DNA of 64,000 bases from Candidatus Nomurabacteria bacterium. GTDB lineage: Bacteria > Patescibacteriota > Minisyncoccia > Phycocordibacterales > UBA9973. The position numbers were made by a program, and so were the translations under genes. Within the stretch, counting starts at the first letter, position 1, and each line of letters starts with the position of its first letter. Location: contig JAHFNS010000001.1 of NCBI GenBank assembly GCA_023267215.1, positions 22,043 to 86,042 on the forward strand. The letters are read 5' to 3'. Below the pieces are notes generated by a model. The model was given only the letters and a program-made list of their open reading frames with translations, made no database searches and was not told the DNA's origin. Positions 5 to 51,467 of this stretch are shown piece by piece.

Positions 5-1564
5 TTGAAGTCTGAAGGTATTCACACAAGTATAGCCGAGAAATTCAAAGGTGTACCAGAAGATGTTATGTCTTATATGAAAGATCTGTCTATTAAGGCA
101 TCCAGTGAATTTGCAAAAGCTCAAGGTTTAGATAGAGAGTTGCAAAAACTTAAATCTAAACCTGAAGCTGAGGCTTTGTTGGTAAATAAAACTGCAGAAG
201 AAAATTCTGAAGAATTTGGGATTGTTAATTTTAAATCTGATTTTGTGTCCAACAAAAAAGAAGTTTCTTTTGTAATGGCAAAATATTTTGTTAGTAAATA
301 TCATATTAAAACAATTGGTCAAAAAATTCGTGATATTTATATATATGAAAATGGTGTTTATGTATTAGGTCAAAATATAATAACGTCTGAAATTCAATTA
401 ATACTTGAAAAAAATGCTGACAGTAAATGCAAAAACCATATCCTAGAAATGATTAAGGATTTAACCTTAACAAATAGAGAAGATTTTAAGGTGGACAAAA
501 ATTTGATCAACTTAAATAACGGAATCTTGAATATAGAAACTGAAGAATTAATCCCTCATAGTCCAGAATATTTATTTTTTACCAAAATACCCATCAATTA
601 CAATAAAGATGCCCAATGTCCTATAATTCAAAGATTCTTAAATGAAATACTACCAGAAGAGCATGTAAAAATAGTTTTTGAATGGTTTGGGTACTGTCTT
701 TACAGGTCTTATTTTATTAAAAAAGCCATTATATTTGTTGGTGAAAGAGATACTGGAAAATCTACTCTTATAAAATTATTTGTAAGGTTAATTGGTGTTG
801 AAAATACCTCGGTGGTATCTTTACAAAAAATATCTTCTGATAAATTTGCTTCGTCTAATTTATATAATAAACATATAAATGTTTATGATGATCTTGAAGC
901 TAAGGATGTGAATGATAATGGTATGTTTAAAATAGCTACTGGTGATGGAATAATAACTGGTGAAAAAAAGTTTAATGAACAATTTCAATTTCAGAATTAT
1001 GCAAAATTAACTTTTGCTTGTAATAAAATCCCGGAAGTAAAAGATATTAATGATCCAGCATATTTTAGTCGATGGATTATTATACCGTTTACAGCACGAA
1101 TAGAAAAAGTAGATAAATCTCTTAGCGACAAAATTAATACACCAGAAGAATTATCTGGCTTATTAAACATGGCTATTCTTGGTCTATCTGAGATCTTAGC
1201 AAAACAAGATTTTAGTTATAACAAGACGCCAGATGAAATAAAAATAGAAATGTTGCTTTCTGGATCTACAATAGCTAATTTTGCATATGAATGCCTTGAG
1301 GAGGATATTGGTTCATGGGTTAGTAAGGATGATATGTATGAAGAATATTCAAAATATGCTCAATCTAATAACTTACCAGTATTTGATAAAACAATGTTAG
1401 GCAGGAAACTTCCTGATCATAGTGGATATATTATCCATGGAACAAAACTAATAGGCAAAAAACAAGTTCAAGGCTGGAAAAATGTAAAAATTAAAGGAAA
1501 AAAAGAAACTTCTGACCAAGAGGGATATGAGGGTGATTTATCAATGTTTAATACAAATAATTAA
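5..1564 (+). CDS. Phage/plasmid primase, P4-family C-terminal NTPase (D5-like), 5'-truncated by the window edge.
   Basis: Walker A motif VGERDTGKSTL followed by DDLE (Walker B-like). The ORF is open at the window start. Confidence 0.55.
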   Translation: MKSEGIHTSIAEKFKGVPEDVMSYMKDLSIKASSEFAKAQGLDRELQKLKSKPEAEALLVNKTAEENSEEFGIVNFKSDFVSNKKEVSFVMAKYFVSKYHIKTIGQKIRDIYIYENGVYVLGQNIITSEIQLILEKNADSKCKNHILEMIKDLTLTNREDFKVDKNLINLNNGILNIETEELIPHSPEYLFFTKIPINYNKDAQCPIIQRFLNEILPEEHVKIVFEWFGYCLYRSYFIKKAIIFVGERDTGKSTLIKLFVRLIGVENTSVVSLQKISSDKFASSNLYNKHINVYDDLEAKDVNDNGMFKIATGDGIITGEKKFNEQFQFQNYAKLTFACNKIPEVKDINDPAYFSRWIIIPFTARIEKVDKSLSDKINTPEELSGLLNMAILGLSEILAKQDFSYNKTPDEIKIEMLLSGSTIANFAYECLEEDIGSWVSKDDMYEEYSKYAQSNNLPVFDKTMLGRKLPDHSGYIIHGTKLIGKKQVQGWKNVKIKGKKETSDQEGYEGDLSMFNTNN

Positions 1565-1693
1565 TTATATGAATATAAAATTTCTAATATATGACTTTAA
1601 ATTTACTATCTTATCTCTCTTTTGGAAAATAAAAAAATGAAAAAAGATGAAATACCCCCTTTTAAGGGTTCATTAATTTAAAAAGTAAAACAT

Positions 1694-2005
1694 ATGGAAA
1701 CAACTACTAAAACTACTAAAACTCCGAAAGCAAAGCAAAAATGGGGAAGATTCAAGTTTCCTTCAAGGCCAGAAGTGTACGAAAAATTCTCAAAATGGAT
1801 GGCCTATCCACCGTCAACTAGAGATCCAAAAACTCAAGGAGAATTTGCAAAATTGAATGAAGTTTCCCCTGACACATTGAGCGACTATAAAAAGAGACCA
1901 GAATTTTGGAAACTTGTAGCAGATAATAAGCAAAAACTACAATGGGAAATTGAAAGCAACCAATTATTGGATCGGGCTTTTAAGGATATGGAAAAAGAAA
2001 GTTAA
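1694..2005 (+). CDS. Hypothetical protein (mobile-element cargo)
   Basis: 103-aa ORF co-oriented with the primase and recombinase. No recognisable motif. Confidence 0.3.
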   Translation: METTTKTTKTPKAKQKWGRFKFPSRPEVYEKFSKWMAYPPSTRDPKTQGEFAKLNEVSPDTLSDYKKRPEFWKLVADNKQKLQWEIESNQLLDRAFKDMEKES

Positions 2006-2018
2006 TTAAAAACATTCA

Positions 2019-2210
2019 ATGCTGATCCAAGACATAACAAAAGAAAAAGTACGAATTAGACGGCCTAAAAGGCTAATAGTACCAACTTTGTCTTTTCATA
2101 TGGTTGAGGGAGCATCAGAAGGGGAGATTCAGCGAAGATTAGACAGCGCTTTTAATATTCTTTTTACAGAAGTTTTTAAAAATAACAAGGGTGTGGATAA
2201 ACCCATTTGA
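2019..2210 (+). CDS. Hypothetical small protein
   Basis: 63-aa ORF within the element. Its end overlaps the next ORF by 4 nt (ATGA-type coupling). Confidence 0.2.
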   Translation: MLIQDITKEKVRIRRPKRLIVPTLSFHMVEGASEGEIQRRLDSAFNILFTEVFKNNKGVDKPI

Positions 2211-2425
2211 CAATTATAGACAACTTCGTATATACTTTATTTATGGAATTTTTAACACGAAAAGAAGTAGCAAAATATTTTAGGGTTCACGAAAGAACCG
2301 TTGATCGCTGGATTGAAAGCGGTGTTTTAAAGAGCTATAAACTTGGAGATGGTAGAACATCACTTTTACGAATACCAAAATCTGAAATTAAAAAGTTTTT
2401 AGATAAAAGTAAAAATAAAAAATGA
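2207..2425 (+). CDS. Helix-turn-helix DNA-binding protein, excisionase (Xis)/MerR-like
   Basis: The segment TRKEVAKYFRVHERTVDRWIESGVLKSYKLG is a typical excisionase-family HTH. It sits immediately upstream of the recombinase and overlaps it by 4 nt. Confidence 0.55.
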   Translation: MTIIDNFVYTLFMEFLTRKEVAKYFRVHERTVDRWIESGVLKSYKLGDGRTSLLRIPKSEIKKFLDKSKNKK

Positions 2426-4077
2426 TAGAAGAAATTAAAAAACAAAATAAACTGATAGCAGTTTATGGAAGAGTCTCAACTTCAAACCAAGAAAATGAAG
2501 GCACTATTGAAACTCAACTTTCGGCCGTAAATCAATTTGCTGAAAAGAGTGGTTTTACTATTGTTCAAAAATATATTGATAACGGGTGGAGTGGCGATTC
2601 ACTTGCTCGTCCGGCCCTAGATCAGATGCGTGGAGATGCGAAAAAGAAAATCTGGGATGCGGTTTTAATCTATGACCCTGATCGTCTGGCCCGCCGATAT
2701 TCTTATCAAGAATTAGTAATGGATGAGTTAAAAGAAGCGGGCGTTGATGTGCTTTTTGTTACTATTCCGGAAGCTAAAAATGATGAAGATAAAATAATGT
2801 ATGGAATGAGAGGTTTATTTTCTCAATATGAAAGAATGAAAATAGCTGAACGATTTAGGCTTGGCAAGGTTCGCAAGGCAAGAGAAGGGCATATTATCGT
2901 GAGCGAGGCGCCTTATGGCTATACCTTTATATTAAAGAAGGGAAAAAGAGGGGACGCGGATTTTCTTCAAGGCCATTATGTGATTAATGAATACGAGGCG
3001 CAGATAGTTAAAAATATATTTTCTTGGGTAGACGATGAAGGATTGAGACTAAGAGGGATTGTTAAAAAACTTCAAGAACTTGGTATTCCTCCTCGTAAAA
3101 GTAAAAGAGGCGTTTGGAATACAAGCACCTTGAGTACTCTGTTAAGAAATAGAACTTATATTGGCGAAGGACACTATGGAGCGTCCTATGCCACTGTGCC
3201 AGTGAATCCAATTAAAAAAGAAGGTTACAGGAAAATTAAAAAAACTAGCCGAAGAATGAAACCAGAAAATGAATGGATCATAATAAAAACACCTAAAATT
3301 TTGGATAAAGATTTATTTGATAGAGTTGGGCAAAAGTTAAAAACAAATTTTCTATTGTCTTCTAGAAACACTAAGAATGAATATCTTTTGGCTGGTAAGA
3401 TTTGGTGTAATTGTGGTAAAAGGCGAGCCGGCGAGGGTCCACAAAGAGGAAAGCATTTATACTATCGCTGTACTGATCGAATTAAAAGTTTTCCTTTAGA
3501 ACATAAATGTAAAGAGAAGGGTTTAAATGCAAAGATATTAGATCCCCTTGTTTGGCAAGGACTTGTGAATCTTATGAGTTCTCCGAATCTATTGGTTAAA
3601 CAAATGGAAAGCTGGTTTAGTAGCCAGAATAAAGGAACCAGTACTTCAATAATAAATATTAAGGAAACAAAAAAGGAAATTGTGAAGCTAGAAGATCAAG
3701 TGAGTCGTTACGCCAAAGCTTATGGAGTTGGAACAATTAATCTTGATCAGCTTAAAGAATATACAAACCCTATTAAAGAAAGTATATCTTTATTTAATAA
3801 TCAGATAACTAAGGCAGAATCAGAGAGCGGACAAACATACGAGGCATTATCACCGAAATTAAATGAGATAGAAAACCTTGCGAAAGCATCAGAAGGACTC
3901 CGTAACTTGAAATTTGAGGCAAAAAAGGCGATAGTTAGAGATATTATAGATAGAGTGGTCGGAACAAGAGAAAATTTACAAGTTTATGGATATATTCCAA
4001 TAGTATCAAATATCAATGTCTTCTCTTTCAATCGGAATTGTGGGGTTGCCAAATGTCGGGAAATCAACGCTATTTAA
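2422..4077 (+). CDS. Large serine recombinase (integrase)
   Basis: N-terminal resolvase catalytic domain (AVYGRVSTSNQ with the catalytic Ser, then DNGWSGDSLARP), recombinase domain, Cys-rich zinc ribbon (CNCGKR...YYRCTD) and C-terminal coiled coil. GC content is higher than flanking genes. Confidence 0.85.
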   Translation: MIEEIKKQNKLIAVYGRVSTSNQENEGTIETQLSAVNQFAEKSGFTIVQKYIDNGWSGDSLARPALDQMRGDAKKKIWDAVLIYDPDRLARRYSYQELVMDELKEAGVDVLFVTIPEAKNDEDKIMYGMRGLFSQYERMKIAERFRLGKVRKAREGHIIVSEAPYGYTFILKKGKRGDADFLQGHYVINEYEAQIVKNIFSWVDDEGLRLRGIVKKLQELGIPPRKSKRGVWNTSTLSTLLRNRTYIGEGHYGASYATVPVNPIKKEGYRKIKKTSRRMKPENEWIIIKTPKILDKDLFDRVGQKLKTNFLLSSRNTKNEYLLAGKIWCNCGKRRAGEGPQRGKHLYYRCTDRIKSFPLEHKCKEKGLNAKILDPLVWQGLVNLMSSPNLLVKQMESWFSSQNKGTSTSIINIKETKKEIVKLEDQVSRYAKAYGVGTINLDQLKEYTNPIKESISLFNNQITKAESESGQTYEALSPKLNEIENLAKASEGLRNLKFEAKKAIVRDIIDRVVGTRENLQVYGYIPIVSNINVFSFNRNCGVAKCREINAI

Positions 4078-17539: not shown

Positions 17540-18856
17540 ATGGAATTACACAGTATCAAAAATTTTAATGAGCTTGCAACGACAGAAAATCGTAAAATAG
17601 CACTAGAGATAATTGAAGCTGGTATGGATGCCATAAATACAGAAAAGGTGATAAAATCATCAGTCATTTTGAAGAGTGATGTTTTGTCGATAGGAGATAA
17701 AGATTTTGATTTATCAAAATATAAAAATATAAAAGTCATAGGTTTCGGCAAATCTTCACCTGATGCAGCTCTAGTGCTAGAAGATGTACTGGGGTCCAAG
17801 ATTACGAAAGGAGCTGTCGTCGGCCTTAAAAAAGTTCCGTGTAGATATATAGAGACATTCATTGGTACACATCCCAGACCTTCGAGAGAGAACATAGAAG
17901 CCGGGAATAAAATATTTGAATTATTGGATGGATCCACTGCTCAGGATTTGATCATTGTTTTAGTTTCTGGTGGAGGTTCAGCATTGCTTTGCTATGGGGA
18001 GGGTGAATGCACAGAAGGTGCGAAGCTATATGATAACTTTTTATCTCTCGGTAAGACTATATCTGAAATGAATACAGTTAGAAAACATCTGTCTCTTTTC
18101 AAAGGAGGAGGATTGGCAAAAATAGCGTATCCAGCCACGGTCATAGGACTTATTTTTTCTGATGTTCCAGGGGGCGATTTTGCTAGTGTGGCTTCTGGTC
18201 CGACTTACAAAGATGAAACGAGTATAAAAGATGCTCAAAAGATAATAATAGAAAATAATTTAGGAAATTTTGATCTGATTGAAACACCTAAAGAAGATAA
18301 ATATTTTGAAAATGTTTTTAACTTTGTAGTTGTGTCGAATGAAATCGCAATAAACAAAATGGTAGAGAAAGCAAAGGAATTTAATTTTGAAACAAATATC
18401 GTTTCGACTGAATTATACGATGAGACGAACATAGCGCTTGATAAAATATTCCAAACGATGCCCCAAAGACGGTCTTCGGGGAATTCCCCGAAGACCGTCT
18501 TTGGGGTGGGTTCTGTTGTTCTAGCTGCTGGAGAGCCAAGTATTACTGTGACAAAAAGCGGGGGAAAGGGAGGGAGAAATTTACACATGGGACTTTTGTC
18601 TATAGAGAAAAATTTAATAGACGATGATTCAGTATTTATATCTTTTGCATCTGATGGTATGGACAATAGTGATGCAGCTGGGACAGTAGTCGATAAAAAT
18701 ACAGTGGAGAAAATAAATAAATTAGGTATAAATGTAAAAGATGCACTAGAAAATTTTGATTCGTATCCAGTATTTGAAAAGTCAGGCGATATCATAATGA
18801 CAGGTCCCACCGGAGCAAACGTGTCAGACTTGATGTTGCTTTTAAAGAGAAAATAA
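17540..18856 (+). CDS. Glycerate 2-kinase (MOFRL family)
   Basis: LVSGGGSALL and the overall MOFRL layout. Contains an in-frame 46-bp perfect palindrome at 18461..18506. Confidence 0.7.
   Translation: MELHSIKNFNELATTENRKIALEIIEAGMDAINTEKVIKSSVILKSDVLSIGDKDFDLSKYKNIKVIGFGKSSPDAALVLEDVLGSKITKGAVVGLKKVPCRYIETFIGTHPRPSRENIEAGNKIFELLDGSTAQDLIIVLVSGGGSALLCYGEGECTEGAKLYDNFLSLGKTISEMNTVRKHLSLFKGGGLAKIAYPATVIGLIFSDVPGGDFASVASGPTYKDETSIKDAQKIIIENNLGNFDLIETPKEDKYFENVFNFVVVSNEIAINKMVEKAKEFNFETNIVSTELYDETNIALDKIFQTMPQRRSSGNSPKTVFGVGSVVLAAGEPSITVTKSGGKGGRNLHMGLLSIEKNLIDDDSVFISFASDGMDNSDAAGTVVDKNTVEKINKLGINVKDALENFDSYPVFEKSGDIIMTGPTGANVSDLMLLLKRK
18461..18506 (+). repeat. 46-bp perfect palindrome inside the glycerate kinase gene (in-frame)
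   Basis: CCCCAAAGACGGTCTTCGGGG-AATT-CCCCGAAGACCGTCTTTGGGG. Confidence 0.9.
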
Positions 18857-44845: not shown

Positions 44846-44870
44846 ATATTGTAAGATATCATAGTTTTTT

Positions 44871-44976
44871 AAAAAATGCAAAATAATACTTTTTCACGGC
44901 TCGCACTCCAACCTGATAGTGGTTTACGAAATTAATATTGCGTATGCCGAAAAAAGTATTATTTTGCATTTTTTAC
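44871..44976. repeat. ~106-bp inverted-repeat element (23-bp AT-rich arms, 55-bp GC-richer core) in the rpsU upstream region
   Basis: AAAATGCAAAATAATACTTTTT-core-AAAAAGTATTATTTTGCATTTT with perfect rc arms. The core CACGGCTCGCAC...GCGTATGCCG is also present in leuS at 9639..9693. Confidence 0.8.
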
Positions 44977-46966: not shown

Positions 46967-46988
46967 AAATTCCACTATATAAACAAAA

Positions 46989-47011
46989 AGCAGTACTATA
47001 AAATAGTACTG
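46989..47011. terminator. Bidirectional terminator hairpin
   Basis: GCAGTACTAT-AAA-ATAGTACTGC between convergent lysS and the gene at 47024..47341. Confidence 0.6.
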
Positions 47012-47023
47012 CAGGAAAACATT

Positions 47024-47341
47024 TCACTCTTGAACCCAGAAGAAGAGTGTTTCTTTATAAAAACGTAAATCTTCTATTTTTATAAAAGTAACAACAAATT
47101 TTGCCGTACTTTTAGAAGGGTTATCAAAAACAATCATGATGATATCATTGTCATGATTGTTTTCTTGTTCAACTGCCAACACGTGAAAAGAGCAGGAAGT
47201 AAAACTTTTATTGTTTCTTCTAAGCGTATTTATTACTTCTTCAATGTTTGGGGATTTTTGTTTTTTCTCTACCATTTTTTTTATAAAAGAAGAGAGATTT
47301 TTATATCCACCAATATCTGTTAGGATATTATAAAATAACAT
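47024..47341 (-). CDS. Hypothetical protein
   Basis: 105-aa ORF with no motif. Confidence 0.3.
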   Translation of the reverse strand: MLFYNILTDIGGYKNLSSFIKKMVEKKQKSPNIEEVINTLRRNNKSFTSCSFHVLAVEQENNHDNDIIMIVFDNPSKSTAKFVVTFIKIEDLRFYKETLFFWVQE

Positions 47342-47697
47342 TTTAACCTCGATTTGTGAAAGAAATTATTTTATATAATTTAACATTATTGTAACAAATA
47401 AGTCAAGTTTGAAGTTATTAATAAAGAGGAAAAAAAGGGGGAGCAAAAAACGGAAGCTAAAATAATTTAGCTCCCGTTAACCTAACCAGAGGGATTCCAA
47501 AGATCCAGATAGATAAGTTTAACTGTTCATTTTTTGAACAGTATGTTTCTCTATGCCAGCGTCACCCAGATACATCCCGTATCTTTAAGGGTTTAGACAT
47601 AAGGAAATGTGTTTTCTAAAAAACGAAACGAACACTTTCTTGATTAATACAATAAATTATATATAAAATAAGTCAAATTTTGACCATTAATACTTAT

Positions 47698-47829
47698 CTC
47701 CCACACCTATAATACTGTCATTCTGCTTTTTCAATAAGAACACCTAAGATATCATGGTTTTTAGTATAAAAAATATTACTTTTTAATTTTTTAGCAGAAC
47801 AAAAAGTAACAGTATTATAGGTGTGGGAG
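47698..47829. repeat. 132-bp MITE-like element with 20-bp perfect terminal inverted repeats flanked by TTAT direct repeats
   Basis: Left end CTCCCACACCTATAATACTG; right end CAGTATTATAGGTGTGGGAG (exact reverse complement). TTAT immediately outside both ends. Subterminal TCATTCTGC/GCAGAA. Confidence 0.65.
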
Positions 47830-47854
47830 TTATCCACAGATAGGGTTTTGCGTT

Positions 47855-47900
47855 GTGGGGGATAGTGGTTTACAATATATATCAAGTGGGAAAAGGTGGG
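47855..47900 (+). promoter_or_regulatory. Candidate MraZ operator: GTGGG direct repeats upstream of mraZ
   Basis: GTGGG at 47855, 47886 and 47896. The last two are spaced 10 bp apart (AAGTGGGAAAAGGTGGGAAA). A TATAAAAT -10-like box follows at ~47924. Confidence 0.5.
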
Positions 47901-47938
47901 AAATTTTAAAGAGCGTAAGCGACTATAAAATTTCACCA

Positions 47939-47992
47939 CCCCGTTAAATAATTTTTGCAAAGCAAAAATTGCCCAAAGGGCATTTAACGGGG
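47939..47992 (+). ncRNA. Structured leader element upstream of mraZ (11-bp outer stem enclosing two hairpins)
   Basis: CCCCGTTAAAT [ATTTTTGC-AAA-GCAAAAAT] [GCCC-AAA-GGGC] ATTTAACGGGG, 40 bp upstream of the mraZ start. Confidence 0.4.
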
Positions 47993-48032
47993 TAATGATT
48001 TTTATGTTCGCTTTGCTCACTAAAAATCAATT

Positions 48033-48476
48033 ATGCTTATAGGAGAATACATACACACAATAGACGAAAAAAATCGGGTATCTCTACCCGTAAAGTTTCG
48101 CAAAGAGCTCGGCAAAAAAATTATTATCACACCTGGCCTAGACCAGTGTTTGTTTATCTTTACAACTGAAGAATGGAAAAAGGTTTCTAAAAGACTTTCT
48201 GATTCCGATTCAGATCTTTCTTTTCTTAAAGCAGACAAAAGAAGTTTCAATCGATTTATGTTCGGACGAGCAGCCGAAGTAGAAGTGGATGCTATTGGAA
48301 GAATTTTGATTCCTGATTTTTTGAAAGAAAGAATTAAATTAGAAGGTAAAGCAGCAATCATTGGAGTAGAAGATAGAGTTGAAATTTGGAATGACAAGAC
48401 ATGGCTTTCATATAGAGATGTAGTGGAAAAACAAGCAGATCAATTAGCAGAGAAGTTAGGGAATGAGAATTTATAA
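48033..48476 (+). CDS. mraZ: Transcriptional regulator MraZ
   Basis: MLIGEYIHTIDEKNRVSLPVKFRKEL, and a second DxxxR repeat (EVDAIGRILIPDFLKE). Confidence 0.85.
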   Translation: MLIGEYIHTIDEKNRVSLPVKFRKELGKKIIITPGLDQCLFIFTTEEWKKVSKRLSDSDSDLSFLKADKRSFNRFMFGRAAEVEVDAIGRILIPDFLKERIKLEGKAAIIGVEDRVEIWNDKTWLSYRDVVEKQADQLAEKLGNENL

Positions 48477-49762: not shown

Positions 49763-51467
49763 TTTTCTTTCTAGAACTAGAGTCATATTTTTATGTATTT
49801 CAATTTTTGCCACCATTTTAATAGGCAAAATTTTTTTAATACAGGTGGTACATAGTAGTTCTTATTCTGAAAAAGCAGATAGACAATATTCAACTCCTTC
49901 ATCCAATATTTTTGAACGTGGCACTATTTATTTTTCAAGAAAAGATGGTCAACTTGTTTCGGCTGCATTACAGACTACTGGTTTTAAAGTAGCTATAAAC
50001 CCTACTAAAATTCTTGTCAAAGAAAGTGTTTATCAAGAACTCTCTAAAATAATAACTCTTGATTATAATGATTTTATAACAAAAGCTAGTAAAGAAAATG
50101 ATCCATACGAAGAAATAGCAAACCATCTCACTAAAGAAGAAGCAGATGCTATATCTTCATTAAAAATTCCAGGACTTTCTATTTATAAAGAAAAATGGCG
50201 TTTTTATCCTGGAAATTATTTAGCTTCACAAACGCTTGGTTTTGTAGCTTATAAAGGAGATGAACTAGAAGGACGTTATGGTCTTGAAAGACAATATAAT
50301 AGTACTCTCTCTATGAATAAAGATAATCCTTATGTTAATTTTTTTGCTGAAGTTTTTTCGAATATTAGCGATACTATTTTAAATAGCAAAGATGAAGAAG
50401 GAGACATCGTGACAACCATCGAACCAGGAGTTCAGAGTTTTTTAGAAAAAACTTTGCAAGATGTCAAAGATAAATATCAAGCTGACTCTATGGGTGGTAT
50501 AATAATGAATCCAGAAGATGGATCTATTTATGCATTAGGGAGCAAGCCAGATTTTGATTTAAATAATTTTTCAAAAGTTAAAAATAATGCTACTTTTTCA
50601 AATCCATTAGTAGAAAATGTTTTAGAATTTGGATCAGTGGTAAAGCCTCTAGTCATGGCAGCTGCCATTGATAAAGGGGTAGTGACAGCAAATACGACTT
50701 ATGACGATAAAGGTTCAGTGCTAGTTGAAGACCACACTATATATAATTTTGACAAAAAAGGGCGTGGACCAGGTACGACTATGCAAGAAGTATTAAGTCA
50801 ATCACTAAACACCGGTATGGTTTTTGTAGAAAAAAAATTAGGTAAACAAAGTATGCGTGATTATTTTATTTCTTATGGCATTAAAGATAAGACAGGTGTT
50901 GATTTACCAAACGAGACAAGTAATTTGGTTTCTAATTTCTTAATAAGTCCAAGAGAGATTGAAGACGCTAATGCTGCTTTTGGACAAGGAATAGCTTTGA
51001 CACCAATAGGGATGATTCGAGCCTTGGCCTCACTTTCAAACGGTGGGAATTTAGTTGTGCCACATATTGTACAAAAAATAAAATATAATAACGGTACAGA
51101 AAAAGAAATGATTTATGAAAAAAAACCAGTAAAAATATCAAAAACAACTGCAGAAGAAATTACTAGAATGCTTGTGAATGTTATGGATAAAGGAGTAGAA
51201 GGTGGAAAACCACAATTAGAACATTATAGTGTGGCAGTAAAAACAGGTACAGCGCAAGTTGCCAATAATGAAACAGGAGGATATTATGAAGATAGACATA
51301 CTCATTCATTCTTTGGGTATTTCCCAGCTTATAATCCAAAATTTATAATTTTTCTTTATGCGGTGAATCCAAAAGGTGTGCCTTATGCTGTACAGACTTG
51401 GGCGAATCCATTTTTAAGTATCACCAAGTTTTTGATTAATTATTATGAAATTCCACCAGATAGATAA
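49743..51467 (+). CDS. ftsI: Penicillin-binding protein (FtsI-like transpeptidase)
   Basis: N-terminal TM helix. SVVK (SxxK), SLN (SxN) and KTG motifs. Sits in the dcw cluster. Confidence 0.75.
   Translation: MLKMKYNFLSRTRVIFLCISIFATILIGKIFLIQVVHSSSYSEKADRQYSTPSSNIFERGTIYFSRKDGQLVSAALQTTGFKVAINPTKILVKESVYQELSKIITLDYNDFITKASKENDPYEEIANHLTKEEADAISSLKIPGLSIYKEKWRFYPGNYLASQTLGFVAYKGDELEGRYGLERQYNSTLSMNKDNPYVNFFAEVFSNISDTILNSKDEEGDIVTTIEPGVQSFLEKTLQDVKDKYQADSMGGIIMNPEDGSIYALGSKPDFDLNNFSKVKNNATFSNPLVENVLEFGSVVKPLVMAAAIDKGVVTANTTYDDKGSVLVEDHTIYNFDKKGRGPGTTMQEVLSQSLNTGMVFVEKKLGKQSMRDYFISYGIKDKTGVDLPNETSNLVSNFLISPREIEDANAAFGQGIALTPIGMIRALASLSNGGNLVVPHIVQKIKYNNGTEKEMIYEKKPVKISKTTAEEITRMLVNVMDKGVEGGKPQLEHYSVAVKTGTAQVANNETGGYYEDRHTHSFFGYFPAYNPKFIIFLYAVNPKGVPYAVQTWANPFLSITKFLINYYEIPPDR

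Follow-up and report, generated by a model that had tools for sequence, protein, structure and literature searches.

Genes and features around the mraZ promoter

The DNA analysed here, a stretch of 64 kb to which we refer as the window, was judged from the names on its closest homologues to come from a low-GC (32.5%) member of the Paceibacteria/Nomurabacteria within the Patescibacteria. In the part under study the gene order is lysS (plus strand), a 105-aa ORF (minus strand), a spacer of 691 bp, and then mraZ, rsmH, a small ftsL-like gene, a PBP gene and murE. The spacer contains a gene-less palindrome of 132 bp at positions 47698-47829, designated E1. Its components and the neighbouring control elements of mraZ are listed in Table 1.

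Table 1. Components of E1 and features of the mraZ control region, with positions in the window.
Feature	Position	Strand	Remarks
Left flank ACTTAT	47692..47697	+	Left copy of the duplicated target; start of the homology between the three copies
Left terminal inverted repeat CTCCCACACCTATAATACTGT	47698..47718	+	Contains an inward-facing TATAAT hexamer
Left subterminal block TCTGCTTTTT	47722..47731	+	Invariant in all copies (alignment)
AT-rich variable centre	47732..47790	.	49-63% identity between copies; without conserved ORF
Outward promoter-like site TTAGCA-16-TATTAT	47791..47818	+	9/12 matches; overlaps right block and right arm
Right subterminal block GCAGAAyAAAAAG	47794-47806		Invariant in all copies
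Right terminal inverted repeat ACAGTATTATAGGTGTGGGAG	47809..47829	+	Perfect over 21 nt with the left arm
Native DnaA-box-like motif TTATCCACAG	47830..47839	+	Insertion target of E1; first four bases are the right duplication copy
mraZ promoter TTGCGT-17-TACAAT (predicted)	47848..47876	+	Read from the sequence; hexamers kept in L019, L023, L026, L030
MraZ-box-like direct repeats	47855..47900	+	GTGGG 47855, GTGGT 47865, GTGGG 47886, GTGGG 47896; conserved in relatives
E2, ~115-nt palindromic insert in the mraZ 5' leader, unrelated to E1	47908..48022	+	Absent from relatives' leaders
mraZ, first gene of the dcw cluster	48033..48476	+	PF02381

The initial annotation had described E1 as a 132-bp element with perfect terminal inverted repeats of 20 bp. 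The element was confirmed, with a perfect repeat of 21 nt (47698-47718 and 47809-47829) and an interior of 90 nt; when one mismatch is allowed, the repeat extends to 24 nt (47695-47718 and 47809-47832). The G+C content of the interior is 22%, as against 32.5% for the window as a whole. The sequence CTCCCACACCTATAATACTG occurs exactly twice in the 64 kb, at 47698-47717 on the plus strand and at 47810-47829 on the minus strand, and 100 shuffles yielded 0 matches. According to our own estimate, 64 kb of the same composition would contain a perfect inverted repeat of 21 nt, with both arms inside 150 nt, with a chance probability of ~3e-5. No second copy of E1 was found within the window.

Across the element, the window reads ...ACTTAT / CTCCCACACCTATAATACTGT - 90 nt - ACAGTATTATAGGTGTGGGAG / TTATCCACAG..., with TTAT flanking both ends (47694-47697 and 47830-47833), and the right-hand TTAT is part of the native motif TTATCCACAG. 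The coordinates bear out both the flanking TTAT and the distance of 25 bp from the right end of E1 to the first GTGGG box (47855), as originally described. For the inward TATAAT boxes of the two arms no conserved -35 hexamer was found on either strand. The outward promoter-like site has counterparts in the two other copies described below, i.e. TTGGCA-16-TATTAT (10/12) in L003 and TTAGCA-16-CATTAT in L013, the latter read from the sequence and lying under the scanner threshold. This conserved outward-facing site may be a promoter, which we regard as a possibility rather than a finding. By-eye readings of the subterminal sequence for an IHF site and for DnaA-trios gave no convincing match.

The mraZ promoter, the DnaA-box-like motif and the four GTGGG/GTGGT boxes were all left uninterrupted by E1, and the upstream DNA of mraZ was pushed 136 bp further away by the insertion. 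The right arm also sets a GTGGG (47823-47827) 7 nt ahead of the box. Side effects of the insertion on mraZ might thus come from the displaced upstream DNA, from the added outward promoter-like site and from the extra GTGGG. In addition, the window has ATAGGG at 47840-47845, where all the examined relatives have GTGGGG right after TTATCCACAG at the mraZ promoter; the change from GTGGGG to ATAGGG means that one GTGGG box has been lost beside the insertion.

When positions 46967-47690 of the window are compared with the relatives, the content of the slot from lysS to mraZ proves variable. The window has the 105-aa ORF at this place and L023 an ORF of 234 aa; in L026 the slot is filled by a Por_Secre_tail protein and a 71-aa ORF, and in L019 it is empty. 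The same part of the window contains a candidate sRNA of ~200 nt on the minus strand (47445-47645), whose body folds well (z = -4.9) and has no Rfam match. It is preceded by a promoter-like TTGACT-16-TATTGT (47676-47649) and ends in a strong intrinsic terminator (47478-47449; a 13-bp stem followed by a T-run), which lies upstream of the 105-aa ORF.

Empty and occupied sites in related genomes

The mraZ loci of four related lineages (L019-L031), in which MraZ is 91-96% identical, were compared with the window; their DNA is ~75-78% identical to it over the aligned parts. No E1 arms were found in these loci with <=5 mismatches in up to 20 kb searched. At the insertion point of E1 the relatives have one uninterrupted AGTTATCCACAG, and their mraZ control region reads ...(g/a)AGTTATCCACAgGTGGGgttttgc(g/t)..GTGGGaagnaGTGGTtTACAAT....GTGGGaaaagGTGGG, with the promoter and the GTGGG boxes as in the window. 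The distance from TTATCCACAG to the -35 hexamer is equal in the window and in the relatives without E1. In the window, E1 adjoins TTATCCACAG on the left and is itself preceded by a second TTAT, and the more distal left flank, aataaattatatataaaataagtcaaattt, is common to the window and L019. At the level of sequence, this comparison shows E1 to be an insertion in this lineage and not a native part of the mraZ locus. The relatives used are different species, and therefore the insertion is not datable. Two further loci, L001 and L002, were set aside as uninformative, as their MraZ is identical and they are 100% identical over the 691-bp intergenic region.

Other copies of E1 were found in two collections. 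A scan of one genome per GTDB species for exact matches to 18 nt of the arm gave seven matches, of which one is a full homologous element in Candidatus Nomurabacteria (PFOY01000016.1; L003/L032); this sole E1-carrying GTDB representative genome has one stretch with an exact-arm match. The JGI metagenomes, scanned with a 19-nt arm pattern, gave nine matches, including the L003 locus again and a new locus, L013. The remaining matches (6/7 in the genomes and 6/9 in the metagenomes) were discarded as solitary chance matches, which belong to unrelated organisms of higher GC and have no second arm. The L003/L032 copy lies between comM and an operon of a small ORF and lexA, whose promoter has a Cheo-type LexA box, and the L013/L044 copy lies upstream of the promoter TTGCTT-17-TATAAT of a conserved sRNA-like sequence of ~90 nt.

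In the alignment of the three copies homology extends from (A)GTTAT on the left to TTATCCACAG on the right, with no similarity beyond these limits. The left flank is AGTTAT in the other two copies and ACTTAT in the window. Between their flanking repeats, the other two copies measure 133 and 136 bp (interiors of 91 and 94 nt), and the left arm of the window is matched in them at 19-21 of 21 positions. The two arms of a copy match each other at 21/21 positions in the window and at 19/21 in both L003 and L013. All three copies have the same orientation and abut the 5' side of an AGTTAT/CCACAG motif.

Relatives without the element were found for these two loci as well. At the lexA locus (LexA 83-85% identical) the empty site of L040-42 reads aatgAGTTATCCACAG-9 nt-TTGACA-LexA box-TATACT; the occupied locus is spaced alike, and L043 has the same spacing. 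At the sRNA locus, the relatives L047 and L050 have AGTTTTCCACTG and AGTTTTCCACAA, respectively, 4 nt before the same promoter; as their motif is a 1-3-nt variant and the spacing is off by 1 nt, the empty site is only approximate here. The empty sites at all three loci, together with the one shared motif position, argue that the copies go back to three independent insertions, which took place at the same position of the motif and in the same orientation. The initial annotation had interpreted E1 as a mobile element and had set against this a structural feature of the locus, present in all relatives and with no other copies anywhere. The opposite pattern was observed, i.e. the upstream region of mraZ in the relatives is without E1 and homologous copies exist at two non-orthologous loci, which supports the interpretation as a mobile element.

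The exact-arm scans of GTDB representatives and JGI metagenomes yielded three distinct loci in total, with one copy of E1 in each genome sampled. A profile search of the 0.56 Mb of fetched loci revealed no further copies. Neither the exact-arm scans of the large collections nor the examination of arm pairs in the fetched loci brought up an autonomous IS with matching ends or a transposase, and the search of the fetched loci for diverged copies or an autonomous partner (arm pairs with <=5 mismatches, blastn-short, nhmmer) gave nothing. One weak nhmmer match, at 49819-49890, lies inside the PBP gene; it is conserved coding sequence and was judged to be a chance match. Viral contigs gave 0 matches with both the single-arm pattern and the two-arm gapped pattern, and in phage and plasmid collections there was no meaningful match, only AT-rich 37-nt matches to Bacillus plasmids.

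The sRNA-like sequence of the third locus (GTGTCTGAGGGGCGTCAGCTCTATCTGRCCA...GACAGGCACAC; L013, 330-430) is also present in L044, L047 and L050, downstream of a 180-aa gene. A terminator hairpin comes next, with a T-run that overlaps the last codons of the 180-aa gene in antisense, and the DnaA-box-like motif stands just upstream of its promoter (TTGCTT-17-TATAAT). No Rfam match was obtained for it.

Target motif, conservation and proposed mode of insertion

The sequence TTATCCACA at 47830-47838 agrees with the DnaA-box consensus at 9/9 positions. The same full agreement is seen at the mraZ and lexA promoters of the relatives, and the relatives at the third locus carry a variant of the target motif, TTTTCCACA. 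In ~189 kb of non-redundant Paceibacteria sequence TTATCCACAG occurs 12 times, versus ~0.4 expected by chance (our own composition-based estimate), and almost every occurrence is followed a few nucleotides further on by a -35 hexamer, also at promoters other than those of mraZ and lexA. This excess and this placement make it a genuine promoter-upstream motif in the Paceibacteria sampled. DnaA is a candidate for the protein that binds it, and the motif could also belong to another regulator.

Some further sites of this kind were noted. The sequence (A)GTTATCCACA(G), a perfect DnaA-box consensus, recurs a few nucleotides before the -35 hexamers of several unrelated Paceibacteria promoters (L019 12893, minus strand; L023 8921, plus strand; L026 15843, minus strand; and the mraZ and lexA promoters). 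L023 contains, 1 kb apart, two copies of an extended version of 40 nt, AAAACGTCAA..TGAGTTATCCACAGGTGGGGTTTTGC. Such recurrence of a box before -35 hexamers suggests a regulon controlled through it.

The copies of E1 differ in a characteristic way. Identity between copies is 87-97% at the ends (arm plus subterminal block) and 49-63% in the 60-nt centre, and the ORF lists revealed no ORF common to the copies. In the 21-bp stem that the arms can form, none of the changes among the four distinct sequences is compensatory: 3 pairs are broken, and 4 changes are one-sided (G-U); two G-U-compatible changes in the L003 arms seemed suggestive at first, and true mismatches are present in L013 and L037. 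Judged from this alignment, conserved ends with a drifting centre are the pattern expected of transposon ends that are recognised as DNA sequence; an RNA helix or a protein-coding insert would look different. Neither subterminal block mirrors the other, so that E1 is asymmetric, in keeping with its fixed orientation.

The reading that we prefer, to which we assign a probability of about 0.78, takes E1 to be a MITE-type mobile element, non-coding and non-autonomous, which inserts site-specifically at a promoter-upstream DnaA-box-like motif and regenerates this motif. E1 is small, has terminal inverted repeats and no coding capacity, the duplicated sequence is single in the empty sites, and the element is present or absent at three loci. 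We hypothesize that a transposase supplied in trans binds the arms and the subterminal blocks, and that insertion is sequence-specific for the motif. This specificity might stem from the likeness between the motif TTATCCACAG and the tip of E1 together with its flank, TTAT-CTCCCACAC; some IS elements choose sites beside sequences similar to their own ends. The duplication and the terminal AG of E1 would then rebuild a complete AGTTATCCACAG beside the -35 hexamer, thus keeping the native promoter module intact, which is a plausible reason why such a landing site is tolerated in compact genomes.

The TTAT at both ends, initially proposed as a target-site duplication, is indeed a direct repeat that corresponds to a single AGTTATCCACAG in the empty site. 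As E1 ends in AG and the target is AGTTAT/CCACAG, the length of the duplication is ambiguous between 2 and 6 nt, and TA, TTAT and AGTTAT all reproduce the data. The target specificity rests on three insertion events, 3/3 of them at the same 12-nt promoter motif. The copy number is very low, which is not MITE-like and constitutes a point against this reading.

The same low copy number lends some weight to the main rival explanation, in which E1 is moved not by transposition but by conservative site-specific recombination, catalysed by a host Xer-like or another tyrosine recombinase. In such a model, the joined ends of E1 would form two inverted arms around the asymmetric core GTTATC, which recombines with the chromosomal AGTTATCCACAG and leaves the shared core at both junctions. 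The joined ends, TATAGGTGTGGGA-GTTATC-TCCCACACCTATA, do have a lox/dif-like 13-6-13 layout, a 6-nt direct repeat AGTTAT flanks 2/3 of the copies, position and orientation of the insertion are identical at the three loci, only one copy was seen per genome sampled, and a conserved gene of the Phage_integrase family is present in these genomes. On the other hand, the target has no conserved arms resembling those of E1, as the empty sites have nothing in common on their left sides. E1 has no linked recombinase, and the footprint is explained equally by a target-site duplication. We therefore consider recombination unlikely, although it is the explanation that competes most seriously with a MITE-type element.

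Explanations in which E1 belongs to the locus itself fare considerably worse. The presence of GTGGG/CCCAC in the arms and the position directly upstream of the promoter, beside a DnaA-box-like motif, could indicate a native regulatory palindrome of the dcw promoter, for example a cruciform, or a looping operator whose inverted half-sites belong to MraZ or DnaA, and in L019 a short inverted repeat does occur at this place (CCCCACCTG...CAGGTGGGG). This is very improbable, since E1 is absent from all examined relatives despite their kept promoter, box and GTGGG repeats, and since it also occurs at the lexA and sRNA promoters, which lack MraZ boxes. The initial annotation had likewise pointed to the coincidence of the arm ends with the MraZ box; as GTGGG/CCCAC is also found in the copies away from mraZ, it is intrinsic to E1 and was therefore not created by or for MraZ. 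That the arm GTGGG serves as an added MraZ site is possible, but unsupported. A replication origin or unwinding element, composed of a DnaA box and an AT-rich palindrome, would account for the perfect TTATCCACA beside a stretch of 22% G+C. We regard it as extremely improbable and rejected it: there is a single box here, the 64 kb contain 23 near-matches versus 19 expected, the cumulative GC skew rises monotonically across the site with no turning point or switch, and the box is native to promoters, the AT-rich part being the insertion.

The alternative already named in the initial annotation, a long structured RNA, would make E1 a hairpin sRNA or a leader element transcribed together with mraZ. 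A strong hairpin is indeed predicted for the single-stranded E1 region (-44 to -49 kcal/mol; z ~ -7.4 with either strand), and the arms contain promoter-like hexamers. Yet each of the five arm substitutions is uncompensated or one-sided, with three pairs broken, E1 lies upstream of the conserved -35 and -10 hexamers of mraZ, and transcripts started from the inward TATAAT boxes would miss the 5' arm. No Rfam family reached its gathering score for E1, and the E-value mode returned only generic plant-miRNA hairpin models, far under their thresholds. A role as structured RNA thus seems highly doubtful, and this alternative of the initial annotation is not supported.

Comparison with known elements and other inserts in the window

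As far as its behaviour is concerned, a MITE-type E1 appears closest to the known bacterial MITEs, such as Correia, ERIC and RUP. The Correia elements of Neisseria (CREE/NEMIS) are gene-less palindromes of ~100-155 bp with inverted repeats of ~20-26 bp, flanked by a short TA-containing duplication and located in intergenic positions beside genes, and the hexamers in their ends can fire outward. A genome contains hundreds of them, as against the single copy of E1 seen per genome; their insertion is not known to be tied to a promoter motif of 10-12 nt, and they belong to a host phylum other than the Patescibacteria/CPR, E1 coming from a Paceibacteria MAG. The arm CTCCCACACCTATAATACTGT appears unrelated to the Correia repeat, and the likeness is one of behaviour only, with no sequence similarity. 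ERIC/IRU, RUP and other bacterial MITEs are, like E1, small and non-coding, have terminal inverted repeats and show presence/absence polymorphism between related genomes. However, they are multi-copy and for several of them a parent IS has been identified, neither of which applies to E1 so far.

Some insertion sequences resemble E1 in their choice of target. IS1397 and ISKpn1, which insert into REP/BIME loops, use one defined short target and one orientation, and IS30 and IS911 insert beside sequences like their own ends, just as the tip and flank of E1 resemble its target. These target-specific IS hit a repeat or an IS end, whereas the target of E1 is a DnaA-box-like motif upstream of promoters; as no transposase was found for E1, the likeness is again behavioural only. 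Elements derived from IS200/IS605 (PATEs, REP/REPtron) also share the fixed orientation and the position immediately 3' of a fixed tetranucleotide, which could here be read as TTAT. In these elements, however, each end has its own subterminal hairpin, while a long terminal inverted repeat and a duplication are missing, and membership of E1 in this group was rejected because of its 21-nt terminal inverted repeat and flanking direct repeat. Integron attC sites and Xer-dependent dif modules are likewise small palindromic DNA recombined at a short core shared with the target. The flanks of E1 do not fit the attC core (GTTRRRY / RYYYAAC) and no cassette ORF is present, so that an attC site was rejected; unlike dif, the target of E1 occurs several times per genome, at promoters. 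By sequence E1 belongs to no named family, and it thus constitutes a new family within a well-known kind of element.

E1 in itself is an ordinary kind of object. Its interest lies in that it defines a sequence-specific insertion system, which could be traced to its enzyme, and in that it is a natural marker of a conserved DnaA-box-like regulatory motif before the operons of mraZ (cell division) and lexA (SOS). The mobile elements of CPR/Patescibacteria genomes are poorly described, and in full-text literature searches we found nothing on MITEs in this group and nothing on MITEs that target DnaA boxes. More tentatively, E1 might represent a class of non-autonomous elements of CPR/Paceibacteria that home specifically to DnaA-box-like motifs at the promoter edge, by end-mimicry or by recognition of the protein-bound box, and rebuild the box; this is a speculation that we put forward with considerable reserve. 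If it were true, such motifs would offer a safe harbour in very compact genomes, and key operons, such as those for cell division, the SOS repressor and a conserved sRNA, would gain an outward promoter and extra regulator-like boxes. Taken with the inserts E2 and E3 described below, it would mean that tiny site-specific elements routinely reshape the promoter regions of these reduced genomes.

E2 has the layout GAGCGTAAGCGA...ACCCCGTTAAAT...ATTTAACGGGGT...TTCGCTTTGCTC. The mraZ leader of the relatives is only ~20-25 nt long and is without E2, and a sequence homologous to E2 is present in the leader of the lexA operon of L040-42, oriented alike with respect to transcription. Two compensatory stem changes were noted by eye, from CCCCG/CGGGG to CCCTG/CAGGG and from GCCC/GGGC to GCTC/GAGC. 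E2 may therefore be a mobile structured leader element. The dcw control region of this genome has been rebuilt by two independent inserts, upstream of the promoter (E1) and in the leader (E2), with which annotation and expression studies should reckon.

A third palindromic insert, E3, lies 3 kb upstream, at 44852-44966 of the window, between a divergent 75-aa ORF and greA. Its arms are 32 nt long and 91% complementary, and it is absent from L019, L023 and L026. In L030 the same intergenic site has a homologous, GC-richer core (CACGGCTCGCACTC.AACCTGA...GCGTATGCCG) in the opposite orientation and with different arms. Given E1, E2 and E3, small palindromic inserts may be a recurrent feature of the intergenic regions of this genome.

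Elsewhere in the window a perfect 46-nt palindrome was found at 18461-18506, formed by two 23-nt arms with no spacer (CCCCAAAGACGGTCTTCGGGGAA/TTCCCCGAAGACCGTCTTTGGGG). In addition, positions 5-4077 hold a block that, according to by-eye readings, resembles an integrated mobile element. It encodes a 519-aa ORF that appears primase-like, of phage or plasmid type, small ORFs including one for a 72-aa excisionase-like HTH protein, and a 551-aa ORF resembling a large serine recombinase.
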